From Candidatus Marinacidobacterales bacterium (GTDB lineage: Bacteria; Acidobacteriota; Vicinamibacteria; Marinacidobacterales; DATDRI01), in the NCBI GenBank assembly GCA_965219415.1, contig CBDCNP010000002.1:2240001-2304000 (forward strand): a stretch of 64,000 bases of DNA, read 5' to 3'. Shown here piece after piece: positions 1 to 13,628 of the stretch (the first letter of the stretch is position 1; each line of letters starts with the position of its first letter). The translations under genes and the position numbers were made by a program. Below the pieces are notes generated by a model. It was not told where the DNA came from, made no database searches, and saw only the letters and a list, made by a program, of their open reading frames with translations.

Positions 1-945
1 CCACCACCCCTGGTGCGACCGGTACCACTCTACCGTGGAGGCCAGCCCCTCGTCGAAGTCGACACTGGACCTAAAGCCCAGTCCGCGAAGCCGGGTCGTA
101 TCTAGGCTATAGCGACGGTCGTGCCCGGGCCGGTCGACCACCTGCTTTATCAGACTCTTGGGCTTTCCCACGAGTTCCAAGATTCGCTCGGTAAGCTCGA
201 GGTTGCTGAGCTCGGTGCCGCCCCCGATATTATAAGTCGTGCCGGGTTGCCCCTTCTCGATCACGAGATCCAGAGCACGGCAATGATCCTCCACGTGTAG
301 CCAGTCGCGAACCTGAAGCCCATCACCGTAGAGCGGCAGCGGCTCGCCCTCCATCGAGTTCGTGATGAACAACGGGATGACTTTCTCCGGATACTGGCGA
401 GGACCGTAGTTGTTCGACGCCCTAGTGACGATCACCGGCAGCCCGTATGTCGTGAAGTAGGAGTAGGCTAAGCGATCCGCTCCCGCCTTGCTCGCGGAAT
501 AAGGATTACGCGGAGCCAGCGGATCCTCCTCGCGGGCAGATCCAGAGCCTATACTCCCGTAGACCTCGTCGGTCGAAATCTGGACGAAAAGCTGCGACCT
601 GGACTCTAGGCGAACTGCTTCCAAAAGAACGAAAGTGCCATAGACATCCGTGAGAATGAACTGACCAGCATCGTGGATGGAGCGATCGACATGAGTCTCC
701 GCAGCAAAGTTAACGATGATGTCCGCCTCGGCAACCAGTGGCTCCACCGCCGAGCGATCGCATATGTCTCCCTTGACGAAACGGTAACCCGAATGCGCCT
801 CCAAACCTTCCAGGTTCGCCAGGTTCCCAGCGTAAGTAAGCTTATCAAGGTTTGTAACGCGCCAATCCGGATGGGCTCGGGTCAGAGAATGAATGAAGTT
901 ACTACCAATGAAGCCCGCGCCACCAGTCACGAGGATGTGGGTCAT
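1..945 (-). CDS. rfbB: dTDP-glucose 4,6-dehydratase (3' end outside window)
   Basis: ATG at 945 overlaps the rfbA stop (ATGA). My translation gives MTHILVTGGAGFIGSNF, STDEVYG, PYSASKA, NNYGP and DRPGHDRRY. It is missing from the ORF track because it runs off the window. Confidence 0.95.
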   Translation of the reverse strand, partial: MTHILVTGGAGFIGSNFIHSLTRAHPDWRVTNLDKLTYAGNLANLEGLEAHSGYRFVKGDICDRSAVEPLVAEADIIVNFAAETHVDRSIHDAGQFILTDVYGTFVLLEAVRLESRSQLFVQISTDEVYGSIGSGSAREEDPLAPRNPYSASKAGADRLAYSYFTTYGLPVIVTRASNNYGPRQYPEKVIPLFITNSMEGEPLPLYGDGLQVRDWLHVEDHCRALDLVIEKGQPGTTYNIGGGTELSNLELTERILELVGKPKSLIKQVVDRPGHDRRYSLDTTRLRGLGFRSSVDFDEGLASTVEWYRSHQGWW

Positions 946-2006
946 GTAACGTCGACCTGGCTACTGTCTCCCAACATGAAACGATGGGCCTTGGGTGTTG
1001 ACTGGGAGCGCTCGATGCGAACGCTGTAGCCCACCAGGCTGTCGACCATACGGCCGCCCAGCTCTAGGATGACACTGCCCGATAAGATAATGCTGTGCTC
1101 GACTTCACTCGCTCTAATGTGAACGTTGTTTTGTATCGAGGTAAAGGGACCGACGTAGGAGCGCTCGATTCGTGAGCCTGCTCCGATGATCGCTGGCCCG
1201 CGCACGACACTCCCGATGATCTCCGCGCCTGCGTCGATCACGACCTTGCCTTCGACACGCGACTCACTATCCACCCGACCGGCCACGCTTGGTTCCAGGC
1301 TATCTAGTACCAACCGATTCGCTTCCAAGATGTCATCGCGCTTGCCGGTGTCCTTCCACCAGCCGTCGACCACATGGGGGCTCACCTCATGGCCATGATC
1401 GATCAGGTACTGGATAGCATCGGTGATCTCCAGCTCGTTTCGAAGAGACGGGCTGATTGCGCGCGCCGCTTCGAAGATGGGAGCGCTGAACATGTACACA
1501 CCTACCAGGGCGAGATCGCTTCGGGGTTTTTGGGGTTTCTCCTGTAGGCGTGTTACTCGGCCATCTGTGAGCTCCGCGACTCCGAACTGCTCGGGATGCG
1601 GGACACGCGCCAACAAGATCTGAGCGGTTGGTCGTTTCTCGCGGAACTCTCCGACCAAGCTCTCGATACCATTCGCGAGAATATTGTCCCCCAGATACAT
1701 CACGAACGGATCCTTCGCCACAAACTCCTCCGCGGTCAGCACCGCGTGGGCGAGCCCTAGCGGAGCCTCCTGAGGAATAAGACCGATCTTCGCTCCCCAT
1801 CGCGACCCGTCGCCGACCGCCTCCTTAATTTCATTCGCCGTTTCTCCAACGATGATGCCGATGTCAGAGATCCCCGCGGCGCGGATAGCCTCGATGCCGT
1901 AAAAAAGGATGGGCTTGTTCGCCACCGGCATGAGCTGCTTGGCTCTAGTGTGGGTGAGCGGTCGGAGCCGGCTCCCGGTCCCGCCACTCAGGATAAGGCC
2001 CTTCAT
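942..2006 (-). CDS. rfbA: glucose-1-phosphate thymidylyltransferase, long form with C-terminal left-handed beta-helix
   Basis: GGTGSRLRPLT, KQLMPVANKP, GLAHAV, YLGDN and ELEITDAI motifs; 354 aa; adjacent to rfbB. Confidence 0.93.
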   Translation of the reverse strand: MKGLILSGGTGSRLRPLTHTRAKQLMPVANKPILFYGIEAIRAAGISDIGIIVGETANEIKEAVGDGSRWGAKIGLIPQEAPLGLAHAVLTAEEFVAKDPFVMYLGDNILANGIESLVGEFREKRPTAQILLARVPHPEQFGVAELTDGRVTRLQEKPQKPRSDLALVGVYMFSAPIFEAARAISPSLRNELEITDAIQYLIDHGHEVSPHVVDGWWKDTGKRDDILEANRLVLDSLEPSVAGRVDSESRVEGKVVIDAGAEIIGSVVRGPAIIGAGSRIERSYVGPFTSIQNNVHIRASEVEHSIILSGSVILELGGRMVDSLVGYSVRIERSQSTPKAHRFMLGDSSQVDVT

Positions 2007-4211
2007 CTATTGGATCCGCGATTGCCCGCCGAGTTGGGTGCCGAACGACCCGATGTTGGCCAGCGTGATGCCAACCCGGAAGAGATTCTCGTCCCGAACC
2101 GTACCGAAACGGTATCGGGCCCACTCCGCCATGAAGCCGCAACACTGAATGTTGTAGTCGACACTCGCCCGGACCAGGTTCAGCTCGGCCCGCTCGACGT
2201 CGTAGGCGGACTCGAAGCGCAATCGAACGGTGCGTGTCACGTTCAAACTGGTAACGCCGCGAAGGTTCCGGCGCTCTCGGCCGGAAGTAAGTTGTACGCT
2301 TTGGGCCAGCGAGCCGCTGACGTTGCCCCACCCACCACCGTAACTCCCGACCAAGCTCATCGAGCGCATCCTCTTGAAATTGACGTCATACTCGAAATTC
2401 CAGGAAGCGGCCAGTCGGCCGGTAGGACGGAAGCGTAGCTTCGAAGTAATCGGGGAATAGCTGCTGGGAACGCCGTCCTCGGTGAAAAAGGGCGTACTGA
2501 ATTGGCGATCGTAGAGGCTGGCATCGACCTGGAGAAAGTATCTCTGTGCAAGCGTCCAGGTGAGAAACTCGTAGGGAACTGCTTTGTTGCTCTTGCCAAT
2601 TTTGCGCTTGGCCAGAAATCGATTCACGAGAGAAAAGGAAAACTGGTTGGTACCCGGAACGTAGTCGTTGGAGTCGAACTTGGGGATGTCTCCGAAGTTG
2701 TCGACCAGCGAGCGATAGCTCCAAATGAGCTGCGGCTCGATAACGTGCTTGTACTTTTCCGCATATCCGTTCCCGGGGGTATTGAAAATGCGAGAAAAAG
2801 TCGGTCCCCTTACGTCGACACGAACCTCGCTGTAAGTTCGGTCCAAAGCATCTCCGGTCACTTCTCCAGCCGAGTTAGTTTGCTGCGAGTAGCGCGTGAA
2901 GCGCGTGATGAACGAGGTTCGCGCGGTCAGGAAAGGCCACACATTGAAAGGGTAGGAAATAGTTGGCAGGACGTCGTAGCGTTGATAATCAACCAGATCG
3001 TCTCGCACACTTCGGGAAAACGAAGAAGCGGAAGTGCTAAAACCGAACAAGATCGGTGTCGGGCCGATCTTCGTCTGCCTACCCTGGAAAGCGACGCGGG
3101 GAAGTATCTCCCGGAAACTAATTCTATCTGTGAAAGACGTCTCATTGCGATCGTAGAGGAAACGTAGGGTGTAAGCCGACCAGGATCGAGCCACGTTCAC
3201 GGTGGCTCGCTTCGAGCGGCGGGTCAAATCTTTATAGCTCTCCTGGAACGTTTGCTGGAAGGCGAAGGAGCTGAAGTAATCGACGCGCGCAATCGTCGAG
3301 AAGTCGCCCGGAAGCCGCTGGTTAACGTTCGCCCTGATCTGCCATTCCTTCTGTTCTAAAACCTTGTCGTCGATGTAGTAGGACTCGAAGCGACCCCGCG
3401 ACGCTCCAGAAAGCAGGTAGCGGTACTCGGTTCCTAGCCCCACCCCACTCTGGGAAAACCAATCGAAGTTGATGGTCGCATCGTGGGAGCGGCTGATGGC
3501 CCAGAAGAAACCCTGGCTGACCATGAACCCCTTGAAGCTAGAGTTTCCTATTTGGGGAAGCAGCAAGCCCGTCGATCGGTTTTTTTCATCGATCGGGTAG
3601 TACAGATACGGCAGATAGAAGACCGGCAACGACTTCACCTTAAGGAACGCGCCGTGGAGGGAAACATGGTGGTCGCGACGGATGATGGCCTTTCCCGAGG
3701 TGAATCGCCAGCGAGGCGTCGGCTGAGCGCAAGACGTGAACGCTCCTCGTTCCACGACGTAGATATCGTCCGACTTCTTCTCCACCACATCACCTTGGAA
3801 GTAAAGATCGTTGCCCGAGCTTCCGGAGGCGTTGTAGAACCTGCCCGTCCCGGTCTCGAGATCGACTTCCATCCGATCACCAACGATCTTTTGGTTGCCC
3901 TGCTGAAAGACGACGTTGCCTTCCGCGACGACTCGCATCTCCTCGTTCCAGAAATCGACTTTGTCTGCCGAGATGCGGATGTCCCCCGACACGATGTCCA
4001 CGTAGCCGGTCGCCTTGACATGCCCCTTCTCGATCTGTTCTTGCTCATCGGCGTTGAGAGTGACCGAGCCGGGCGGGAGAGGAGCCGGTGATTGGGCCTG
4101 TTGAGCCTGCTGGGATTGTCCTTTTTGCCGAGAAGAGTCGTCTTCTTGGCCGTTTTGCCCGCGGGCGACGGTCGCTGCGGTTAGAAGAAAGATAATTATC
4201 AGTCTCAACAT
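2007..4211 (-). CDS. lptD: LPS assembly outer-membrane protein LptD
   Basis: Signal peptide from ATG 4211 (MLRLIIIFLL), OstA-like N-terminal domain, FTSC-x4-PRW and RSTGLLLP motifs, beta-barrel-like C-terminus. Confidence 0.88.
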   Translation of the reverse strand: MLRLIIIFLLTAATVARGQNGQEDDSSRQKGQSQQAQQAQSPAPLPPGSVTLNADEQEQIEKGHVKATGYVDIVSGDIRISADKVDFWNEEMRVVAEGNVVFQQGNQKIVGDRMEVDLETGTGRFYNASGSSGNDLYFQGDVVEKKSDDIYVVERGAFTSCAQPTPRWRFTSGKAIIRRDHHVSLHGAFLKVKSLPVFYLPYLYYPIDEKNRSTGLLLPQIGNSSFKGFMVSQGFFWAISRSHDATINFDWFSQSGVGLGTEYRYLLSGASRGRFESYYIDDKVLEQKEWQIRANVNQRLPGDFSTIARVDYFSSFAFQQTFQESYKDLTRRSKRATVNVARSWSAYTLRFLYDRNETSFTDRISFREILPRVAFQGRQTKIGPTPILFGFSTSASSFSRSVRDDLVDYQRYDVLPTISYPFNVWPFLTARTSFITRFTRYSQQTNSAGEVTGDALDRTYSEVRVDVRGPTFSRIFNTPGNGYAEKYKHVIEPQLIWSYRSLVDNFGDIPKFDSNDYVPGTNQFSFSLVNRFLAKRKIGKSNKAVPYEFLTWTLAQRYFLQVDASLYDRQFSTPFFTEDGVPSSYSPITSKLRFRPTGRLAASWNFEYDVNFKRMRSMSLVGSYGGGWGNVSGSLAQSVQLTSGRERRNLRGVTSLNVTRTVRLRFESAYDVERAELNLVRASVDYNIQCCGFMAEWARYRFGTVRDENLFRVGITLANIGSFGTQLGGQSRIQ

Positions 4212-4386
4212 CGAGCGAGACCCGATCTCGACCCCCTTAGTCCTTTTGGACGAACGCATTATGCACCGTGGGCACACGTTTTTCCAAGCCCACTTTCCTT
4301 ATCATCCCGTAACTGGTTCCCTAGAGGGACTTACGCTCCTACTGGCGCTTTGCCTGCGGACAGGTCATGCTTACGGTCTTAGGCGA

Positions 4387-5823
4387 ATGACCGTCACGGC
4401 CGTGAAACCAGAGGTCTTGCTCGTATCGTGTTACGAGCTTGGCCACCAGCCCATGGGGCTTGCCAGCCCCATGGCGTTCCTTGCCCGAGCCGGGTTCCCG
4501 GTCACCGCGGTCGATGTCTCGGTCGACTCTTTGGAGAAGCACGCGGACCTCGTCCGTGGGGCCCGCCTTGTCGCCATCTCCGTTCCCATGCACACCGCCC
4601 TGCGTTTGGGCTCACGTGTCGCACGGCGAATCCGGGAATTGAATCCGAGCTGCCATCTTTGTTTTTACGGACTGTACGCAACCCTAAATCGTGGTTACCT
4701 CCTACAGAACGGCGCGGACTCGGTCTTGGGAGGAGAGTCGGAGCAGTCTTTGGTACGCCTCGCGGAAGGACTTGCCCAAGGCGGCGACACCCTCCCAACC
4801 GTCTCCGAGCCGGTGCTGGAGCGACTTCGGTTCCCGGTGCCACTACGTCGCGGCCTGCCGCCACTCGAGAAGTACGCCCACTTGGAACGCGATGGAAACC
4901 ACGGCCCGGTCGGCTATGTCGAAGCGAGTCGTGGATGCCTGCGCCACTGCTTGCATTGCCCGATCCCGCCGGTATACCAAGGTCGCTTCTTCGTAGTACC
5001 CCAGGACGTCGTGCTCGACGACATTCGCCAGCTCGTCGACTCGGGAGCCACCCACATCACATTTGGGGATCCCGATTTCTTGAACGGACCGGGGCATTCA
5101 CTGGCGGTGGCCCGTACGCTCCACCAGGAGTTTCCCGAGCTCACGTTCGACGTCACCGCGAAAGTGGAGCACATTCTGAAACACCGAGCCTTGTTACCGG
5201 AGCTCCGCCGCCAAGGCTGTATCTTCGTCGTGTCCGCCATCGAATCCCTCAGCGATCACGTTCTGAATCAGCTCGACAAAGGACACACGCGCCAAGACGC
5301 CATCGAAGCGGTGAGCGCTCTCCGACTCGCCGGAATCGCGCCACGCCCGACATGGGTCTCGTTCACACCCTGGACGACGCTTCGGGACTATCTCGACGTC
5401 CTCGAGTGGGTGGATGAGGAGGGGATTATCGGTCATGTCGACCCCGTACAATTCGCGGTCCGCCTGCTCGTTCCCCCCGGCTCCTTACTGCTAGAGAGGG
5501 CGGCGATTCAGCCCTTCTTGGAACCACTCGTGCCAGAGAGGTTCACTCATCCGTGGAAACACCCCGACCCGAGAATGGATCTCCTCCACGATCGCGTCAG
5601 CGAGCTCGTCGAGGCATCCGTTTCGAATGACGAGGATCCTTTTGAGACTTTTTCACGCATCCGCGAATTGGCTTGGTCCAAGCTCGAAACGGGAAAACCC
5701 CCGCCAGAGCGAAGAGGAAGGTCCGAGCGTGGAACGCACCCCCCTCGGCTCACCGAAGCGTGGTTCTGTTGATCAGAGCCCACCGAGGGCCAGTTCGGCC
5801 CGCTGGAGAATCCGGGCATTTGA
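4387..5823 (+). CDS. CUAEP/CCAEP-tail-type radical SAM protein, predicted selenoprotein (UGA at 5770-5772 read as Sec)
   Basis: N-terminal SCYELGHQP domain and CxxxCxxC motif (CLRHCLHC). Reading through TGA gives RLTEAWFC-U-SEPTEGQFGPLENPGI* with the next stop at 5821-5823. Confidence 0.88.
5783..5806 (+). promoter_or_regulatory. candidate bacterial SECIS hairpin
   Basis: CCG-A-GGGCC-[AGUUC]-GGCCC-GC-UGG. The apical loop starts 19 nt after the UGA and has GU at loop positions 2-3. Confidence 0.62.
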
Positions 5824-5872
5824 GGGCGAAACGCAGACCGCCTATGATGAAGCGGAATAGGGAGAGTATGAG

Positions 5873-6469
5873 ATGAGCGAAGAGATCAAGATCACCGCCG
5901 AGCCGAAGGATACAGAGACCTGCAGCTTCATCATCGATCGACCGGTCCATGAAGAAGGCTCCGCCTACTTTGACGATCCAGACCGGGCCAGTGGCTCTCC
6001 GTTACCTGAAAAACTCTTTGCCCTGGGTGGCGTCAAGACCGTTCTGGTGCAGGACAACAAAGTGACCATCACCGTGGGAGACACCGGCGCCGATTGGCTT
6101 CCGTTGGCCAAGCAAGTCGGTGCGACCATCCGCACCGTAATCGAATCGGGCGAGAAACCCATCTCCGCCTCCCTGCTCGACTCCATGCCTCCCTCCGAGC
6201 AGATCAAGAAGGTGATAGAAGAGCTCTTCATTCGGGAGATCAACCCCGCGATTGCCGCGCATGGCGGTTTCGTGGAGCTGCTAGATGTGAAGGGGAACGA
6301 AGTCTATCTCCGTCTTGGAGGTGGGTGCCAAGGTTGCGGGATGGCGGATGTTACCCTGAAACAGGGAATAGAAACCTCCATCCGCAAGGCGGTGCCCGAG
6401 ATCGGAGCCATCATGGACACGACCGACCACGCGGCGGGAAGAAACCCCTATTACGCGCCCTCCAAGTAG
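5873..6469 (+). CDS. nfuA: NfuA/NifU-type Fe-S cluster carrier with N-terminal scaffold domain
   Basis: INPAIAAHGGFVELLDV and GGGCQGC (CxxC) motifs, ending DHAAGRNPYY; GGAGAG ribosome-binding site upstream. Confidence 0.88.
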   Translation: MSEEIKITAEPKDTETCSFIIDRPVHEEGSAYFDDPDRASGSPLPEKLFALGGVKTVLVQDNKVTITVGDTGADWLPLAKQVGATIRTVIESGEKPISASLLDSMPPSEQIKKVIEELFIREINPAIAAHGGFVELLDVKGNEVYLRLGGGCQGCGMADVTLKQGIETSIRKAVPEIGAIMDTTDHAAGRNPYYAPSK

Positions 6470-6514
6470 GCAGGCGGCAAGAAAAGCCAGCCCGCGCTCA
6501 CGGCCCCACCTGGT

Positions 6515-6536
6515 AGTGTCCTAATTTTAGGACACT
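6515..6536. promoter_or_regulatory. 22-bp palindrome, putative operator
   Basis: AGTGTCCTAA-TT-TTAGGACACT: perfect 10-bp arms, intergenic, no U-tract. Confidence 0.6.
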
Positions 6537-6554
6537 CCCCCCCGCCTTCCCCTG

Positions 6555-6584
6555 TTGACTAGCCCCCAGGGTCAGTGTTATATG
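6555..6584 (+). promoter_or_regulatory. putative sigma70-type promoter
   Basis: TTGACT (6555-6560), 18-bp spacer ending TGn, TATATG (6579-6584). Confidence 0.4.
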
Positions 6585-6727
6585 TCCCTACCCAACCAAA
6601 AGTGGGCTGCAACCAAACCTTACAGCCTAAAACAGTAGCCTTTTTCGCGGCTTTTCTTGGCGTACGAGAGTACTGATGTGTGCTTAACCGCCACGTCGAG
6701 TTGACGGAGTCTACCTTGATGCAACAG

Positions 6728-7394
6728 ATGGGTGTTAAGGTCGTTTGGTTCTGCACGAGCTTGAGCAACCCCAACGAGACGAGCCTCTGCCAATCTCGAT
6801 GCCTTGAATTTCCTGCGCGCCCTCAAGGGGGAGCGCATCGAGGGGGAAGCAACGATCCCCATCGCCGGTCAAAATCGGCGTCTCAGCAATTCCAACCTGG
6901 ATGAAGCGATCGACTGGTTCGGAGAAATGGTCGCCGGCTATTTCCAGCGTCAGGGGATAGATTCGCCGTTTTACCTGGTTCCCATTCCGGACACCAACAC
7001 GACGTTGGAATCGACTACTGGCCCCTGGACGTCGGTGACAGCGATAGCTATTGCCTCCAAGTTCGAAGGTGATGTGGAAGCTCTAGACGTTCTTCGCTGG
7101 AAAAAGAATCTCTCCCACCTCAGTGCGGAGGCGCAGGACTCCACTCGGCTATACGAGAACCTAGCCCTGCTCGGAAAGAACAAATGGGACAAACCGGTAG
7201 TGCTGGTGGACTACCTGGCGGCTAACGCGGCGCGAGCCCAGGCCTGTGAGGCGTTCTTGAGAGAGAACGGCGCTCGCGTCCTTCTGTGTGTGTTTGCGGG
7301 AAGAATCGTCCCGCAGAAGCCCGAGAAGAACTTTGCGGTTTTCAAAGCCGAGGTCGCGGGAATCAACCCTGGTCCCCCTCGCTCGGCGGACTGA
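6728..7394 (+). pseudogene. phosphoribosyltransferase-fold (ComF-like) protein, probable frameshift near 6790
   Basis: MGVKVVWFCT (ATG 6728) continues in another frame as ANLDALNFLRALKGE. Contains LVPIP and LDVLRW; the PRPP loop is degenerate (VVLVDYLAANA). Confidence 0.55.
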
Positions 7395-8616
7395 TGACGA
7401 ATTCGAGGCAAGCGGCAGCCTCTCTGAGAGCGCTTTCGACGGCGGCGAGAGTTTCGGCGCGGGCAAATATGAAACCGAGATAACTGGAGCCTTCCGGGAG
7501 GGGCGCCAAGATCTTGCCGAGGTGTGAGGTGATCGTCACCTCTTGAACTCCGGAAACCGCCTCCGCCTCTCTCTCCCCCCGGACGCCTTTGAGAACGCCC
7601 GCCTGAGGAATCGGCATCATCATGACACCGGATGCAACGGACTCGCGGGTTAGTGTACTGACATCCATCCCCAATGCGTGCCGAAGAAGCAACTCCTCGA
7701 GCGAAAACCCCACACCGAACCTGAGCGACCGAGAACAAAGCCCCCCGATGGATCGCCCGGCGATCTCGATGACCCACACCCCCTCGGAGTTCAACCGAAG
7801 CTCGGCGTGGATGGGTCCCTCTCGAAGCCCTAGTGCCTCGGCCGCTTTTGCGGTGGTAGCCGCGATCGCAGATTGACGTCCCTCGGACAATCTGGACGGG
7901 GTCACGTAAATCGTTTCTTCGAAGAAAGGCCCCTCTAACGGATCGGGCTTGTCGAAGAGAGCGAGCACTTTGAGCTCTCCCCCAGTCATGACTCCCTCGA
8001 GGGCGACCTCGACACCCGATACGTAGTCTTCGACCAATATCTGGCGAGCCAACGGCCCGCCACGACGCACTAGATCGGGGTCGCGAAGAATCGCTTTTAA
8101 TCGTTCGAAAGCCGAAACGAATTCATGTTCGTCATTGGCGCGCATCACACCGCGGCTCGCCGCAAGGAAGACGGGTTTCAAAACACACGGGTATCCGACA
8201 CGGCTCGCTATGTCCTCTGTGTCATCGGCTACCGCAAAGAGCCGGTGGGCGGGAACGAGCACAGCTCCCGAGAGCATTTCTCTCATCACATGCTTCAAAC
8301 GGGTCGCGGTGGCGGCCTGGGGAGAATTGTGGGCGAGTCCGACCGCCTGCGAAATGGCAGCCGCTATGACTGCGGTGTCCTCGTCGACCGAGACCACCGC
8401 CTGGAAGGGGTAGTCTCGAGAGAAAGAAAGGGCTTTTTCCGCCGCCGAGTCCGGGTCCAGGAAATCGACGGTAAGTAGCGAGCCCGGCTCTCGGCCCTCC
8501 ATCGTGCTGGGTTGCTCGGAGACGACCACCACCTCCACACCGAGCCTCCCGGCCGCCGCCATGAAATCATGGGTACGGTAGGTATTGGTGGGCAACAAAA
8601 GGAGTACGCGAGGCAT
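7363..8616 (-). CDS. ATP-grasp domain protein (L-amino-acid-ligase-like)
   Basis: PCVLKP, ASRGV, LVEDYVSGVEVALE, HAELR and VIEIAGRSIGG motifs. Confidence 0.88.
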   Translation of the reverse strand: MPRVLLLLPTNTYRTHDFMAAAGRLGVEVVVVSEQPSTMEGREPGSLLTVDFLDPDSAAEKALSFSRDYPFQAVVSVDEDTAVIAAAISQAVGLAHNSPQAATATRLKHVMREMLSGAVLVPAHRLFAVADDTEDIASRVGYPCVLKPVFLAASRGVMRANDEHEFVSAFERLKAILRDPDLVRRGGPLARQILVEDYVSGVEVALEGVMTGGELKVLALFDKPDPLEGPFFEETIYVTPSRLSEGRQSAIAATTAKAAEALGLREGPIHAELRLNSEGVWVIEIAGRSIGGLCSRSLRFGVGFSLEELLLRHALGMDVSTLTRESVASGVMMMPIPQAGVLKGVRGEREAEAVSGVQEVTITSHLGKILAPLPEGSSYLGFIFARAETLAAVESALREAAACLEFVISPPSEGDQG

Positions 8617-8648
8617 AAAGCCGCATCACGGCAAGGGGGCTCGAGAAG

Positions 8649-9005
8649 CTATTTACGGTGAAAGTACGTGTCGGTGCCGTCGAGCCAATCGTGCCGAATG
8701 GGACTGAAGATGTCCACGTCCACCGTATCCTCGAGCGCCTCGGCGCGGTGCGGGACGTTGGGAGGAATGACCACGAACTCGCCGGGTCTTACCGTCACTT
8801 CCTCCTCTGCTTCACCGATCCAGAGACGGAGTGCTCCTTCCATGATGTAGGTGATCTGCTCCGCCTCGTGCGAGTGGGTCGGAACCACGGCGTCTTTCTT
8901 GAGCAGGACGCGAGCCATCATCTCGTTCTTGCCCATCACGATCTGACGACTAATGACCTCCGTCACCTTCTCGACGGGGACCCGATCCCAATTCAGCGGC
9001 TCCAC
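8649..9005 (-). CDS. cupin domain protein
   Basis: HSHEAEQ and PPNVPH metal-binding motifs; DIFSPIRHDW. Confidence 0.88.
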   Translation of the reverse strand: MEPLNWDRVPVEKVTEVISRQIVMGKNEMMARVLLKKDAVVPTHSHEAEQITYIMEGALRLWIGEAEEEVTVRPGEFVVIPPNVPHRAEALEDTVDVDIFSPIRHDWLDGTDTYFHRK

Positions 9006-9593
9006 TCATTCCCCCGTTTGTAAACGGATCGTCTTGATGACGACGGCCTCGACGGGAACGTCCTTATAGGGCCCCTTGCTCCCTGTTTTGACCGTTCTTA
9101 TCTTGTCCACCACGTCCATCCCCTCGGTGACTTCCCCGAAGACCGTATAGCCATAATCCCGTGCGCTCGGTCCTTTGTAGTTCAAGAAAGTATTGTCCTT
9201 GACGTTGATGAAAAACTGCGACGTCGCGCTATGGATTTCGTTGGTGCGCGCCATCACGATGGTGCCGCGGCGGTTCTTCAAGCCATTCCCGGCTTCGTTC
9301 TTGATTGGCTCACCAACAGGTTTCTTCTGCATGTCGGCGGTAAACCCGCCACCCTGAATCATGAAGTTCGGGATGACACGGTGAAAAATGGTGCCGTCGT
9401 AGAACCCATCGTTGACGTAGGCCAGGAAGTTCTCGACCGACACCGGCGCTTTGCTCGGATTGAGACGAACCGTGATGTCTCCCTGGGAGGTCTCAATGAC
9501 CACGATCGGATCATCGGCTCCCTCCACAATGGTTCCGGAAGCCAATACCAGTACTAAGCCAAGCGACCCGAGAAAAAACCGACCGACGCCCAT
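9006..9593 (-). CDS. ppiA: periplasmic cyclophilin-type peptidyl-prolyl isomerase
   Basis: Signal peptide; [23 protein letters not shown] and YTVFGEV motifs. Confidence 0.93.
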
Positions 9594-9660
9594 AAGCGCT
9601 TACCTCCTTTAGGGACGGGAAATCGCTGGTGTTACGCAGAACGAAGCCGAGTATGCCCGA

Positions 9661-10257
9661 TTACTCGACCGCTTGTCCAACCGGAGCACTGCCTCGGGCG
9701 AAGAGGCTCATTTGGACGGGCTGAGGAGCACCGTCGCGGAGTACTCCTTCGTGAACCAATAGCCAACGCTTGGCAGGCAGACCCCCTCCGTAGCCAGTGA
9801 GGGAGCCATCGGCGCCCACCACCCGATGGCAGGGTATGACCAAGGGAATCGGGTTAGCACCGTTGGCCGCCCCGACCGCACGGGAGGCAGCGGGGCTTCC
9901 CGCCAAGTGTGCGATCTCGGAGTAGGACGCAATCCGTCCAAACGGAATTCGAGCCACGCTAGACCAAACCACTTTCTGGAACGGGCTTCCGCGCAGGTCG
10001 AGGGGCAGATCGAAGACCCTCCGGTGGCCTTCGAAATACTGGTCCAGCTGTTGGACGACTTCCGCGTGAGCCGAGCCGCCCGGTAATGTCGATTGTAGTT
10101 GGGCCCCGGGGAAAACCCTCTGCATCCATCGGTCATACCGTCCTGGCCTCGAAGGCTCCTCTGGCAAAGCGATAGCCGCCAGACCAACGGAAGTGAATAC
10201 CAAGCGGAGAGTGCCCAACGGACTATCTAGCGTGGTTCGATAGATGGTCTCGCTCAT
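9661..10257 (-). CDS. ogt: methylated-DNA--protein-cysteine methyltransferase
   Basis: Likely start MSETIYRTT at 10257; RAVGAANGANP and IPCHRV active site. Confidence 0.92.
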   Translation of the reverse strand: MSETIYRTTLDSPLGTLRLVFTSVGLAAIALPEEPSRPGRYDRWMQRVFPGAQLQSTLPGGSAHAEVVQQLDQYFEGHRRVFDLPLDLRGSPFQKVVWSSVARIPFGRIASYSEIAHLAGSPAASRAVGAANGANPIPLVIPCHRVVGADGSLTGYGGGLPAKRWLLVHEGVLRDGAPQPVQMSLFARGSAPVGQAVE

Positions 10258-10316
10258 TACGGTAGGCCAGCCTCCTAATAGCACGGCGGCCCCTAAAGTC
10301 AAAGTGGGAATGTTGA

Positions 10317-10730
10317 CTAGTACTCGAGCGCCTTGAGCATCGCTTCCCACTCCGCCTCGAGCTCGAAGAAGCCCTTCCCGAAAGCGGAGCGGGCGGCCGC
10401 ATCGATGCCGACTTTCTCGGCGCGCTGAAAGAAGCGACGCACGCGCTGCATTCCCTGCCTCTCGAAGAGGTATTGGACGAAAGACCCGATCAATTGGAAC
10501 CGGATTCCATCCGTGGCACGCTTCCCGGCCTGCTGGAGATTGTTTCGCGCACCGGCGGCACGCTGATGGAGGGAAGCTAGTGACCGGCTGGAGGACCAGA
10601 CGAAGGTTGCGAGATCTCGGCGAAGCCAATCCATATTCACCGGGAAACCCTGGGGGCCGCCGAGAACCGGCCCCAACACTCCTATCGAGATGGAGCCGGC
10701 GCCTCCCACTTTGTCTTCTCCTTGATCCAT
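10317..10730 (-). CDS. hypothetical protein; C-terminus resembles the tail of peptidase MA-like proteins (possible fragment)
   Basis: GSFVQYLFERQG...FGKGFFELEAEW pattern; no HExxH motif; N-terminal part looks unrelated. Confidence 0.4.
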   Translation of the reverse strand: MDQGEDKVGGAGSISIGVLGPVLGGPQGFPVNMDWLRRDLATFVWSSSRSLASLHQRAAGARNNLQQAGKRATDGIRFQLIGSFVQYLFERQGMQRVRRFFQRAEKVGIDAAARSAFGKGFFELEAEWEAMLKALEY

Positions 10731-10977
10731 CAGGCAGATCCCTCCAGACCCAGACTTCGATTAATGCAATCCGCGTAGCAGAGCTAGCCGGGCACGCATG
10801 GCTGTAACCCGCACATTAGACAGTGGGCTTCCCCGGCTGGTGCTCGCCGCGTCTACGACGAGTGTAAAATTTTTGTCCCCCCTCGCTCGATCGGTGCAAA
10901 GAGGTGGACACTTGCCTCGAGTTGGCCCTGGGTGTGAACCTCTGGAACGTCGCCCGACGAAGCACTAGACTGACCTT

Positions 10978-11616
10978 GTGGAACCGATCCTTGCCATCCT
11001 CTTCGACTGGGACGGTACGTTGCTGGATTCTTTCGCGGCTGGTTTCCGCGCGTCGATGGCGGTTTTTCGTCATTTTGAAATACCCGTCGACCGAGAGCGA
11101 TTCCTAAACACCTACAGCCCGAATTGGTACGACTCCTATCGCCAATTGGGATTGCCAGAGGCCAGATGGAACGAGGCCGACCAGATTTGGCTCGACAACT
11201 ACGGCAGGGAACGGCCCAAGCTCTACCCTTTCGCCGAGCGAACGGTCGAGACGCTCGGCCGGAACGGCTATACGCTGGGAGTCGTGACGAGCGGAACCCG
11301 GGAGCGAGTCACTAAAGAGCTCGAGCGCCACGGTCTAGCGGAGAGCTTTTCCACGGTCGTTTGCTTCGAGGACACGCAACCAAAAAAGCCGGATCCCGAA
11401 CCACTCCGAGTGGCACTAGAGCAACTGAATCGCCGGCCAGAGGAGGCGGCCTACGTGGGGGACAGACCCGAGGACATCCTCATGGGCAAGAAAACGGGCT
11501 CCTATAGCATCGGCGTTGTAAGCCTGTTCGGCAATCGGCGAGTGCTCGAAGAAGCTTCTCCCGATCTCATTCTTCCAGATGCTGGACACCTCCCTAGCCG
11601 CTTCGGTCCAAGATGA
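10978..11616 (+). CDS. HAD-IA family hydrolase (phosphoglycolate phosphatase/PpaX-like)
   Basis: FDWDGTL, VVTS, KKPDPEP and YVGDRPED motifs. Confidence 0.9.
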   Translation: MEPILAILFDWDGTLLDSFAAGFRASMAVFRHFEIPVDRERFLNTYSPNWYDSYRQLGLPEARWNEADQIWLDNYGRERPKLYPFAERTVETLGRNGYTLGVVTSGTRERVTKELERHGLAESFSTVVCFEDTQPKKPDPEPLRVALEQLNRRPEEAAYVGDRPEDILMGKKTGSYSIGVVSLFGNRRVLEEASPDLILPDAGHLPSRFGPR

Positions 11617-12086
11617 TTAGGCGCGAGACACCGCGGTTCATAGCCGACGCCATGGTCGGAAAGCTGGCCCGGTGGCTGCGTGCGCTGGGCGCGGACGTTC
11701 TCTACGATTCCTCACTGGACGACCACCACCTCGTGGCCCTCGCCCGCCGTGAGGGACGGGTGTTGCTCACTCGCGACGTACCTCTGGCCTCGGCAACCAA
11801 CGGGCCGGAGCGGCTCCTCATCGAGAGCGGCGACTTCCGTGAACAGCTGGTACAAGTAGTCAAGGCTTATCGACTCGATCCGAGGCGCCGGCGATTCAGT
11901 CGTTGCATCGACTGCAACACTCCTCTGGAGCCGGCGCTCCGGGAGGAGGCACGGCATCGAGTTCCACCCTATGTTTTTTCCACGCAGGCCCGCTTCTTGA
12001 GATGCGAACGCTGCGGCAAGATTCTGTGGGAAGGCGCCCATCGCCAACATATGCGACAGGTGCTCGAAGGGCTGTTCGCGGAGTGA
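11613..12086 (+). CDS. Mut7-C RNase (PIN-like) domain protein
   Basis: DAMVGKLARWLR, LLTRD, SRCIDCN and CERCGKILWEGAH zinc ribbon. Confidence 0.9.
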   Translation: MIRRETPRFIADAMVGKLARWLRALGADVLYDSSLDDHHLVALARREGRVLLTRDVPLASATNGPERLLIESGDFREQLVQVVKAYRLDPRRRRFSRCIDCNTPLEPALREEARHRVPPYVFSTQARFLRCERCGKILWEGAHRQHMRQVLEGLFAE

Positions 12087-12095
12087 AAGGCTCTT

Positions 12096-13628
12096 TTACT
12101 GGAGCTCGTAGACTAGAACCCGAGCGGAATCCGCCGACTGAAACTCGGACGCAAACCGGAGACCGCTAGGGGCGAACTCCGGCGCCAGCAAGAACTGAAG
12201 CTCCGGTCTCGTTTCGGGAACATATCGATCGTCGATCACCAAGTGGGTCACAGATTCGCGTTTCCCGAAACGAAGCACCTCTTCCCAACTCCCAACCGGC
12301 GTCCGGATGTACTCCCCATCCGCGTAGAAGGCAACTTGCGGTTTTCGATCCATGATCCTTGGACGCGAACCCGCACGATCTCGAAGCCAAAGACCGGCCT
12401 CTCGATAACTCACGTTGGGATCCGATCTGTATAGCGGCCGCAACGTGAATGGGAGGAGGGTCATTATCGCTATGATGACTACCGACGCGCCGACCACACC
12501 CGGTCCCACGAACCAGAGCCGCTTCGAGAGCGCGGCTTGGACAAGCTCCACCCCGCGGCCGGCCAGAATCAACGCCACCGGAAGCAACGGGACGAAGAAC
12601 CGGGCATCGACATAGAAGAACAGGAGAATTGTGTAAGGCACCCACGAAAACAGGAGAAAGAACTCCTCCCATTTTCCCCCGAAACGAGTGAGCCCGAGCA
12701 CCACCAGGGCAATCATGACCGGGGGAAAGAGCTGGGGTAAGACGTACTTTTGAACCAGGTGCAGGTTCATTATCCACCGCTTGAGAAACACCAAGGGGTC
12801 CGCCAGCAGAGCCCCGGGCAGAGACGAAGGAGCTACCCCCTCATCCGCCGCTTCGACCCGATCGATGGCGCGAGTGAAATGAGTCTGACCGACCGCTTGA
12901 GAGATGAGTAGTGTGACCTTCGTCTTCCCCGTCAATCCCCCGACCTGCATGGCGTAGGGCAGGATGAACACTGCGACGCCGCCGAGGAAACAACCGATGT
13001 TCATAGCGGTAGTCGTTTTGCCCCCCGACTTAGTCCCCCAGACAACCGAACCGAGACAGACCACGACAAAGTAGGGCAAGTAGGTGATGATCTCCGGGCG
13101 GATTAGGTACCCCACGCCCAGCAAAGAGCCGGCGGTGAGAGACCAGAACCATTTCCTCCCCGTAAGGGCAAGCAGAGCCGCCAAAAAGAACAGGTTCAAC
13201 ACAAGGGTGAAGGTGGACGCCGTCAACACTTGCGTCGAGGCTTCGACCAAGGGCGGATAAAAGGCTGCCAATGAGACGGTGGCCAGTGCCACGGCGACAC
13301 CGTAGACACGCCAAGCCAGCAAGAAGAGTGGAAATATCAGCAACGAGCCCGTGACAACCGAGACGAGTCGCGCCGCGACCTCATAGTCGGCTACCACGTT
13401 CGATGTAATCCCGATGAGCGCCGGGTAAAGGGGCGGGAACATGGGGTTCGTCATCGAGCCCTCTTCCACCCATTCCCTCGCCATGTGAGCGTAGGCCACG
13501 CCGTCGGTCTCGATGCACTGCTGGTACGCCATGAGCCACACACGAAGCCCGATGGCAACAAGGAAGATCAGTACGAGAAGGCCCCAAGGATAGAAGGCGG
13601 GTGCGTGGTTCTGCGCTCTTTCGGTCAT
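12096..13628 (-). CDS. GT-C (PMT/ArnT-like) multi-pass membrane glycosyltransferase
   Basis: DGVAY, PPLYP and YLIRPE motifs, many transmembrane helices, soluble C-terminal domain. Confidence 0.75.
   Translation of the reverse strand: MTERAQNHAPAFYPWGLLVLIFLVAIGLRVWLMAYQQCIETDGVAYAHMAREWVEEGSMTNPMFPPLYPALIGITSNVVADYEVAARLVSVVTGSLLIFPLFLLAWRVYGVAVALATVSLAAFYPPLVEASTQVLTASTFTLVLNLFFLAALLALTGRKWFWSLTAGSLLGVGYLIRPEIITYLPYFVVVCLGSVVWGTKSGGKTTTAMNIGCFLGGVAVFILPYAMQVGGLTGKTKVTLLISQAVGQTHFTRAIDRVEAADEGVAPSSLPGALLADPLVFLKRWIMNLHLVQKYVLPQLFPPVMIALVVLGLTRFGGKWEEFFLLFSWVPYTILLFFYVDARFFVPLLPVALILAGRGVELVQAALSKRLWFVGPGVVGASVVIIAIMTLLPFTLRPLYRSDPNVSYREAGLWLRDRAGSRPRIMDRKPQVAFYADGEYIRTPVGSWEEVLRFGKRESVTHLVIDDRYVPETRPELQFLLAPEFAPSGLRFASEFQSADSARVLVYELQ

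Follow-up and report, generated by a model that had tools for sequence, protein, structure and literature searches.

Does the radical S-adenosylmethionine (SAM) gene that begins at position 4387 of a 64,000-nucleotide stretch of Candidatus Marinacidobacterales DNA stop at the TGA codon at 5770-5772, or is this codon read as selenocysteine (Sec)? The stretch, hereafter the window, comprises positions 2,240,001 to 2,304,000 of contig CBDCNP010000002.1 (NCBI GenBank assembly GCA_965219415.1), and all coordinates below count from its first letter unless another contig is named. A first-pass annotation made from the letters alone had proposed that the UGA encodes the Sec of a vicinal Cys-Sec pair in a hidden selenoprotein, and this proposal is supported by the codons of homologous genes, by a hairpin behind the UGA and by the Sec machinery of the genome. 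Judged by sequence comparison, UGA 5770-5772 is almost certainly a selenocysteine codon and not a stop. We regard the parts of this reading taken jointly as highly probable, namely Sec decoding, a hairpin with the form of a selenocysteine insertion sequence (SECIS), the Sec machinery, a 478-residue enzyme and a conserved module of this enzyme with a ligase and a helper protein. It is likewise very likely that the whole is best explained as a genuine selenoprotein gene of the catalogued family NF040546. The gene and its elements, all on the plus strand, are as follows.

4387..5823, plus strand: full coding sequence of the predicted CUAEP/CCAEP-tail radical SAM selenoprotein, 478 aa with Sec462 (start inferred; NF040546 match)
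4417..4761, plus strand: N-terminal B12-binding-like (Rossmann) domain, residues 11-125 (Pfam PF02310, 32.6 bits)
4921..5352, plus strand: radical SAM core, residues 179-322 (Pfam PF04055, 49.8 bits)
4936-4959, plus strand: CxxxCxxC cluster motif C184/C188/C191, all three Cys invariant in 80/80 sequences
5767..5772, plus strand: vicinal Cys461 (TGT) and predicted Sec462 (TGA 5770-5772), each position C or U in 80/80 sequences
5773..5820, plus strand: read-through tail SEPTEGQFGPLENPGI, 16 residues after the Sec, kept in Sec forms and Cys forms
5785..5803, plus strand: SECIS-type hairpin in the family's 7-pair register, 5785-5791 with 5797-5803 (covariation, folding energies)

The ATG at 4387-4389 opens a frame that reads to ...PRLTEAWFC, where Cys461 is encoded by TGT 5767-5769 and is followed at once by TGA 5770-5772. 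Direct reading confirmed the earlier observation that the frame continues past WFC-TGA, and the residues beyond it, S-E-P-T-E-G-Q-F-G-P-L-E-N-P-G-I (5773-5820), extend to a second TGA (5821-5823). In the public annotation the gene (P0012, 503 aa) begins at ATG 4261 and stops after ...WFC; the read-through product is almost certainly 17 residues longer at its C-terminus than gene callers give. For the other end of the protein we infer a start at ATG 4387 in preference to ATG 4261, because the NF040546 profile starts at residue 10 counted from 4387 and because in L047, the closest relative, the frame is closed above the equivalent start, from which 464 aa lead to its TGA. The upstream ATG is further disfavoured because it would overlap the start of a divergent LptD-like gene (2007-4277, minus strand). 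A sequencing error does not explain the TGA: of the 11 differences that separate 4300-6073 from a 2130-nt contig of another study's run (X7), none is listed at 5770-5803.

The read-through protein matches the NCBIfam model NF040546, "CUAEP/CCAEP-tail radical SAM (seleno)protein", at 663.6 bits (657.1 bits in a six-frame search of the genome), above the curated cut-off of 500 bits for this equivalog. The alignment places profile positions 1-467 of 468 on residues 10-471, crossing the UGA to nine residues past it. The second-best NCBIfam model is that of ArsL (NF040542, cut-off 450 bits) at 301.5 bits, and the third reaches 45 bits. A species-level scan with one genome per species confirmed 548 relatives, and 8000 protein clusters score E <= 1e-20 against the family. 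The best 80 of the 548 relatives, our wider set, come from Acidobacteriota, Methylomirabilota/Rokubacteria, Nitrospirota, Planctomycetota, Gemmatimonadota, Ignavibacteriales and others; 79 of them contain the Sec/Cys site, and the 80th ends at a contig end. The two loci closest to the window protein share 88% and 85% identity with it. The word 'hidden' in the first-pass annotation thus fits the gene callers, which end P0012 at WFC, and does not fit the family, which is curated under a name that includes the selenoprotein tail. The reading is right yet not new, as the family is curated already, with its Sec tail. The same truncation affects an NCBI-named "CUAEP/CCAEP-tail" protein of Rokubacteria, likewise cut at WFC, and the public call P0109, while a Cys-form protein in public calls continues through CCAEPTRDQF.... 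A preprint by Haft names the family among the few proteins with a CU motif (bioRxiv 10.1101/2022.07.06.499078), and our literature searches on CUAEP/CCAEP, on DUF169 with radical SAM and ATP-grasp, and on ArsL/selenocysteine found this preprint as the only relevant mention and no characterisation of NF040546.

To follow the codon through the relatives of the gene, we used an order-level set of 41 related genomes, including that of the window, alongside the wider set. The 41 genomes hold 22 full-length orthologues above the cut-off, every one of which has exactly one in-frame TGA, and all 20 of the relatives' loci that were fetched read PRLTE[AP/N]WFC-TGA-[AS]EP. Across the 79 wider loci the codon is TGA in 48, TGC in 24 and TGT in 7, in agreement with the expectation that homologues would show Cys or Sec opposite the UGA, and the [ASV]EP(T)..Q tail is kept. 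Past the site, Sec and Cys forms share T at +4 (76/79) and Q at +7 (78/79); the E at +2 and the P at +3 do not vary in these loci, but were required by the search pattern. Because the Cys forms carry the tail as ordinary coding sequence, the tail is a real part of the protein. On a tree of 80 proteins built with the tail excluded, at least 8 Sec/Cys changes are needed. The window protein has Ser in place of Ala after the Sec, from which the first-pass annotation had made a 'CUSEP variant'. As a distinct class this did not hold up: it is a one-residue change found among the 20 relatives' loci in only 3, all of the window's genus, and in 3 of the 79 wider loci (AEP 75, SEP 3, VEP 1), where it is confined to that genus and one Rokubacteria locus.

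Further support for Sec decoding is provided by the hairpin. The predicted stem-loop GGGCC-AGUUC-GGCCC was confirmed at 5787-5801: five G-C pairs join 5787-5791 to 5797-5801, with an additional pair G5785-C5803 across an A5786/G5802 mismatch, and the first base of the apical loop AGUUC (5792-5796) is the 20th after the UGA, leaving 19 nt between. The conserved hairpin begins 13 nt after the UGA, and the same register is present in all 20 relatives' loci. In an alignment of these 20 (19 distinct), 91.7% of the cells of the 7-pair helix are paired as opposed to 81.1 +/- 1.8 in shuffles, none of 500 shuffles reaching 91.7%, and registers shifted by 1-3 columns give at most 59.4%. Four of the seven pairs have changed on both sides (G-C to A-U, G-C to U-A, G-C to C-G), and in one compensating pair the 5' arm has changed non-synonymously (Gly to Asp) and the 3' arm synonymously (GGC to GGU). 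The hairpin also goes with the codon. The 27-nt segment has a mean folding free energy of -12.0 kcal/mol in the 48 TGA loci and -3.6 in the 31 Cys-codon loci, a contrast whose Mann-Whitney p of 3e-13 overstates the case because the relatives are not independent. With a cut of -6.5 kcal/mol, set after seeing the data, the hairpin is present in 49/49 TGA genes and 5/31 Cys genes, and the loop is AGUUN in 42/48 TGA loci. The SECIS check suggested earlier thus came out in favour of the element by covariation and by association with TGA, though without an Rfam match. We take it as strongly supported by this comparison that the hairpin has the position and form of a bacterial SECIS; SelB-GTP-Sec-tRNA(Sec) would bind it at 5785-5803 on the translating ribosome and direct Sec to UGA 5770-5772.

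Several observations weigh against this reading of the hairpin. Folded as a single 70-nt sequence it is unexceptional (z = -0.76, with 46/200 shuffles folding equally well or better), and the SECIS case rests on comparison for this reason. An Rfam search of 5700-5900 at E <= 10 returned no SECIS family and four chance-level matches only. Moreover, the tree offers only 4 well-supported independent Sec/Cys contrasts, with which the hairpin agrees in 3-4 and disagrees in 0, a number that cannot give a significant sign test (p 0.125-0.5), and the hairpin lies inside coding sequence, so that its conservation is partly protein constraint.

Consistent with Sec decoding, the genome of the window (8.05 Mb in 3 contigs, completeness 96%, contamination 8%) encodes the machinery that the first-pass annotation had asked for. 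Profile matches above the cut-offs were obtained for selA (569.7 bits), selB (375.8) and selD (328.3), and the tRNA-Sec (selC in the earlier wording) scores 69.7 bits and was assigned the anticodon tca by ARAGORN. The selD gene of this genome (contig 3:3889655-3890587, L011) itself carries one in-frame TGA, …VTCAG-UGA-ASKLSP…, and by its sequence SelD is a selenoprotein here. Two stem-loops follow the selD UGA, of which the second, CCCAG-GUU-CUGGG, places its GUU loop ~36 nt downstream, an arrangement that is consistent with Sec and not decisive. Homologues ending at WFC and a genome without Sec machinery had been named beforehand as grounds for abandoning the proposal; the tail proved conserved and the machinery complete.

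To place the enzyme structurally, we modelled it with AlphaFold2 from a 20-sequence alignment (mean predicted local distance difference test score, pLDDT, 82.9; predicted template modelling score 0.84). The last ~40 residues are of low confidence. Foldseek groups the model with TsrM, AprD4, OxsB, MgmA and MiaB, and among solved structures searched by sequence MgmA was closest at 36.8 bits, no ArsL structure being found. For the product, the following make-up is strongly supported: a Rossmann domain of the B12-binding-like type, then a radical SAM barrel that carries a [4Fe-4S] site, a C-terminal domain and a low-confidence, probably flexible tail. Of the remaining cysteines, C15 and C278 are each kept in 75/80 sequences, C89 in 72 and C92 in 64. 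An auxiliary Fe-S cluster on C15, C278, C461 and U462 was considered and is unsupported, C15 and C278 being kept in only 75/80 each. A paralogue elsewhere in the genome (contig 3:3451282) is unrelated to the finding and was set aside; it is a B12-type radical SAM protein of generic kind, for which HpnJ is the best model (155 bits, below cut-off).

The radical SAM gene does not stand by itself. Two genes accompany it in the window.

5873..6469, plus strand: Nfu-like Fe-S carrier gene (Nfu_N and NifU domains), separated by 49 nt from the true stop of the radical SAM gene
7363..8616, minus strand: L-amino-acid-ligase-type ATP-grasp gene (Pfam ATPgrasp_N, ATP-grasp_4 and LAL_C2), convergent with the radical SAM gene

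The Nfu-like gene is preceded by AGGGAGAG, and a promoter and terminator scan of 4100-8800, otherwise uninformative, found no terminator-like site between it and the radical SAM gene. In metatranscriptome library X20, a 219-nt contig (5746-5964) begins ahead of the UGA and reaches into nfu. It hints that the two genes are co-transcribed, but weakly, as DNA can occur in such libraries. The RNA libraries X19 and X20 cover 7 and 5 of 30 bins, respectively; uncovered bins carry no meaning, and DNA carry-over is possible in both. The best solved relatives of the ligase are the L-amino acid ligase BL00235 (3vot, 116.6 bits), followed by BacD; BL00235 forms Met-Gly and Met-Met (Table 2, PMC6920838). 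A ligase orthologue (57-91% identity) is present in 23 of the 41 related genomes, exactly the 23 that have the radical SAM gene, the window's own genome included; without the unpublished genome G007, in which the radical SAM gene is split over two contigs, the count is 22/40. By family, the other genomes hold both genes in 5/7 (f1), 17/17 (f2) and 0/16 (f3), and in 23/23 genomes the ligase is convergent on the same contig within ~1.6 kb.

Across phyla, clustering of open reading frames (ORFs) put the ligase and radical SAM genes at most 6 kb apart in 38/79 loci, often in the same direction; Nitrospira, for example, has the order radical SAM > DUF169 > ligase, and Blastocatellia the order ligase > radical SAM > Nfu. 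The next gene downstream of the radical SAM gene is Nfu-like in 21/79 fetched loci, in addition to the window, and DUF169 in 21 others, and an Atg22-like major facilitator superfamily (MFS) transporter follows in 8 Blastocatellia-type loci. Among 20 genomes without observed adjacency, 14 hold a ligase orthologue at 49-63% identity, and none was found in the other six (5 Planctomycetota and 1 Pyrinomonadaceae). Overall, it is strongly supported that the enzyme is functionally linked to an L-amino-acid-ligase-type enzyme, and that the two belong to one conserved gene module together with a small helper (Nfu here, DUF169 elsewhere). In some high-G+C loci the ATP-grasp gene is overlain by a longer antisense ORF, and some sense frames have an in-frame stop in the assembly, such that a naive ORF list hides the ligase. 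A neighbour cluster of ~456 aa without a Pfam match (c7) was rejected as an antisense artefact of this type by the coordinates of four loci (L049, L050, L053, L076), which come on top of the 38, and the same masking probably affects L059, L067, L081 and L103.

Other lineages vary the module. Five Planctomycetota loci (L071, L078, L105, L111, L120) all have a pyridoxal phosphate (PLP) enzyme resembling diaminopimelate decarboxylase, with DUF169 in 4/5, a 295-aa protein with a formylglycine-generating-enzyme (FGE)-sulfatase domain following in 4/5 and a 155-aa protein of no family in 2. Queried with the window ligase, 3 of the five genomes with this PLP module yielded no ATP-grasp orthologue; by genome, the query was unmatched in G072, G073, G074, G076 and the further Planctomycetota genome G078, and matched in G075. 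A cultured bacterium, Thermomicrobium roseum DSM 5159, carries the Sec form on its megaplasmid NC_011961.1 (TRD_RS12835, L127; WFC-UGA-AEPLEDPSGPV..., 51.6% identity), flanked by a class I/II PLP aminotransferase and an MFS transporter, and its coding sequence in the PLSDB gene table also ends at WFC. No ATP-grasp orthologue is present on this megaplasmid, which is uninformative since the chromosome was not searched.

What might the enzyme do? The family nearest to it is that of ArsL. A Bacillus cereus plasmid protein with an RCCLKC tail is 37% identical to the window protein over 409 residues (E 2e-91), the homology stopping at residue 401 of the latter. ArsL has been described as splitting SAM to a 3-amino-3-carboxypropyl (ACP) radical and making a C-As bond, and its C-terminal Cys as binding As(III), their removal stopping product formation and not SAM cleavage (bioRxiv 10.1101/2024.02.01.577332; 10.64898/2026.04.29.721666). 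Of the five RCCLKC-type plasmid loci that we inspected, four (in Alicyclobacillus, Priestia, B. cereus and Pantoea) have a gene annotated as ATP-grasp no more than 5 kb away; the canonical Pseudomonas arsQ-arsL-arsM locus has none. The ligases of B. cereus pAH820_272 (L128) and Alicyclobacillus pAACI01 (L129) showed the ATPgrasp_N/ATP-grasp_4/LAL_C2 make-up of the window ligase on scanning. The pairing of radical SAM enzyme and ligase thus recurs in both sister families, as analogues and not orthologues. The ATP-grasp genes of the arsenic islands suggest that some arsinothricin-type clusters make a peptide-linked product; we found no paper in the literature searched that links arsinothricin clusters with ATP-grasp ligases. 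In L129 and in Pantoea pSUH1_C (L132) genes for the ATP-grasp protein, an MFS transporter and ArsM follow one another, and in the three Bacillales records (L128, L129 and Priestia L130) a carboxymuconolactone-decarboxylase-family gene directly precedes the ATP-grasp gene.

By analogy with ArsL, the enzyme would cleave SAM to the ACP radical. This radical would combine with a soft atom or small substrate bound to the tail by its vicinal Cys-Sec pair, and the resulting amino acid, of the 2-amino-4-X-butanoate type, would then be coupled to another amino acid by the ATP-grasp ligase. Nearby-encoded PLP enzymes and MFS-type transporters may handle the product instead in some lineages, and some Planctomycetota would decarboxylate the amino acid in place of ligating it. 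Sec would serve as a more reactive stand-in for Cys, with no sign of selenium metabolism. We favour such ArsL-like chemistry, making an unusual amino acid, only tentatively. It is favoured, by indirect evidence throughout, because the ArsL model is by far the next best and because of the 37% identity to the RCCLKC protein and the ATP-grasp genes near RCCLKC-type loci, and an amino-acid product is favoured because the family's neighbours act on free amino acids (the PLP decarboxylase of the 5 Planctomycetota loci, the PLP aminotransferase of Thermomicrobium) and a relative of the ligase makes Met dipeptides. That this constitutes a widespread pathway in at least six phyla, in which an ArsL-like enzyme and a ligase make first an amino acid and then a dipeptide, with X neither arsenite-specific nor selenium-dependent, is a possibility that we put forward with considerable reserve.

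A good deal weighs against the proposed chemistry. The score of 301.5 bits lies under the 450-bit cut-off of the ArsL model; the tail of the window protein is ~60 residues longer and ends in a C-U/C pair, not CCxxC/RCCLKC; and this tail offers only two invariant ligands as opposed to the three used by ArsL. The modelled tail has a pLDDT of 38-68, leaving its reach to the active site a prediction. The three ArsL-cluster ligases that we compared are only 22-28% identical to the window ligase. No ars genes occur among the 12 ORFs scanned at 1-13628, and no arsM, arsQ/MFS, arsR, aquaporin or ArsN context was seen at the window or among the recurrent neighbour clusters of the 80 loci. An identity of 55-60% across phyla would also fit a housekeeping function better than an antibiotic one.

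These points bear on the alternatives, which concern both the codon and the chemistry. Were the TGA a real stop at Cys461, with the hairpin a transcript or translation signal unrelated to Sec, the endings of P0012, P0109 and the Thermomicrobium coding sequence at WFC and the unexceptional single-sequence fold would be accounted for. Against this, at least 10 codons past the TGA are in frame and conserved in 48/48 TGA loci and match the 31 Cys-form tails, a curated profile spans the site, the hairpin accompanies the TGA, the genome has all of the Sec machinery and no terminator-like site separates the gene from nfu, and we consider a genuine stop extremely unlikely. A nonsense mutation of a Cys codon in a decaying gene would take one base (TGC/TGT to TGA), and Cys forms do exist; however, the TGA is fixed in 22/22 orthologues of two families of the order and in 48/79 loci across phyla, always with the matching hairpin, and the rest of the gene is intact and highly conserved, so that this explanation is effectively refuted by sequence comparison. 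Sec decoding is preferred because the profile spans the UGA, the TGA is conserved, Sec and Cys alternate, the hairpin covaries and the machinery is complete.

With Sec accepted at residue 462, the Cys-Sec pair might instead be a redox selenenylsulfide arm or a hydrogen-atom donor in an enzyme using ordinary 5'-deoxyadenosyl chemistry on an organic substrate. Redox-active sites typically allow Sec and Cys to interchange at a single position, the tail has no more than two invariant ligands, the fold is class-B-like (AprD4, OxsB, TsrM), most such enzymes making 5'-deoxyadenosyl radicals, and the neighbourhood shows no metal or metalloid gene. ArsL, with non-canonical SAM cleavage and a substrate-binding Cys tail, is nevertheless the nearest family by a wide margin, and no conserved thioredoxin-like partner is encoded nearby; a redox arm is the main rival, about as tentative as the ArsL-like reading. 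We also considered whether the module makes a selenium-containing small molecule, the C-Se bond drawing on the selenium of selenophosphate. In four Blastocatellia loci (L054, L055, L056, L077) selD adjoins the ATP-grasp > radical SAM > Nfu operon, divergent from it, and one of the four (L056) has a Cys-form radical SAM gene. Yet selD scores above the cut-off in only 7/31 Cys-form genomes (one genome without selD is labelled a complete chromosome, and the others may be incomplete), and in the window genome it is ~1.6 Mb distant from the radical SAM gene. Because most Cys-form genomes lack selD, its adjacency is probably the synteny of one lineage, and a selenium metabolite is very unlikely. Finally, radical SAM and ATP-grasp pairs occur in clusters for ribosomally synthesised and post-translationally modified peptides (RiPPs), and the conserved tail after the Sec might itself be modified by the ligase. 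The ligase, however, has the make-up of an L-amino-acid ligase (LAL_C2; BL00235, BacD) and not of the graspetide type, no conserved small ORF turned up among those of at least 90 aa, and NCBIfam RiPP models score far below ArsL; we judge maturation of a peptide or of the enzyme's own tail quite unlikely.

For the window genome the result is an annotation correction, to 478 residues with Sec462 and a conserved 16-residue tail after the Sec. The present analysis adds to the curated family the association of the hairpin with TGA, the exact co-occurrence of the ligase, the independence from selD, the parallel ligase in ArsL-type clusters and a cultured carrier of the Sec form. The family is carried by environmentally important groups (Nitrospira, Methylomirabilota, Acidobacteriota and Planctomycetota). 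If ArsL-like chemistry holds, it would be a second and far more widespread case of non-canonical radical SAM carbon-heteroatom bond formation. ArsL is the only canonical-motif radical SAM enzyme known to make the ACP radical, and the chemistry of this family would show whether that is a curiosity or a common reaction. The constant pairing with a ligase and the cultured carrier make the question testable.

The window holds some further features around the module. Three envelope genes lie upstream (1-4277, minus strand) and are syntenic in two relatives (L047 and L048).

1-945, minus strand: dTDP-glucose 4,6-dehydratase, running off the window
942-2006, minus strand: glucose-1-phosphate thymidylyltransferase, long form
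2007-4277, minus strand: LptD-like protein, divergent from the radical SAM gene

Between nfu and the ATP-grasp gene, a 196-aa ORF (6804-7394, plus strand) has no Pfam or NCBIfam match. Its nearest ESM Atlas cluster (score 0.95) is labelled 'hypothetical protein', with a phosphoribosyltransferase family on 13% of its members. The ORF is present in the same-genus locus L048 (237 aa) and absent in L047, where the ligase directly follows nfu, and the module seems to have gained it by a lineage-specific insertion. At 6516-6535, 47 nt after the nfu stop, a perfect 20-base palindrome, GTGTCCTAATTTTAGGACAC, opens a seemingly A+T-richer stretch. It could be a terminator or an operator; a simple terminator scan did not flag it.

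Set beside known systems, the gene resembles each in part. In bacterial SECIS elements such as that of E. coli fdhF, a stem-loop lies just 3' of the UGA inside the coding sequence. The window hairpin shares with this element an apical loop 19 nt downstream of the UGA with G and U in the loop, and differs in its short stem (5-7 pairs) and in matching no Rfam model, its SECIS role being predicted. With NF040546 the protein shares the full-length match above cut-off, the domain order, the CxxxCxxC motif, the ...PRLTE.WFC-[U/C]-.EPT tail and the Sec/Cys alternation, and it departs from the family form in the Ser that follows the Sec. The likeness to ArsL (NF040542) lies in the B12-binding-like and radical SAM architecture, in a Cys-rich extreme C-terminus and in the LAL-type ATP-grasp and MFS genes of 4/5 inspected loci of the ArsL family; unlike ArsL, the present family is spread over Acidobacteriota, Methylomirabilota, Nitrospirota, Planctomycetota, Gemmatimonadota and others and is not confined to arsenic islands. 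AprD4 (6fd2), OxsB (5ul2-4), TsrM (6wte) and MgmA (9ccb) share the fold (template modelling score, query, 0.54-0.66; Foldseek E 1e-13 to 1e-15), but are 14-20% identical, and none has a Cys-Sec tail. Thioredoxin reductase ends in Gly-Cys-Sec-Gly and MerA in Cys-Cys. The CU motif is also described for HgcA and SAO proteins, and a terminal Cys-Cys for HgcB (bioRxiv 10.1101/2022.07.06.499078). Thioredoxin reductase, MerA and HgcB thus share with the window protein an adjacent Cys-Sec or Cys-Cys pair near a flexible C-terminus, serving as redox arm or soft-metal holder; their folds and enzymes are unrelated, and the likeness is one of resemblance only.

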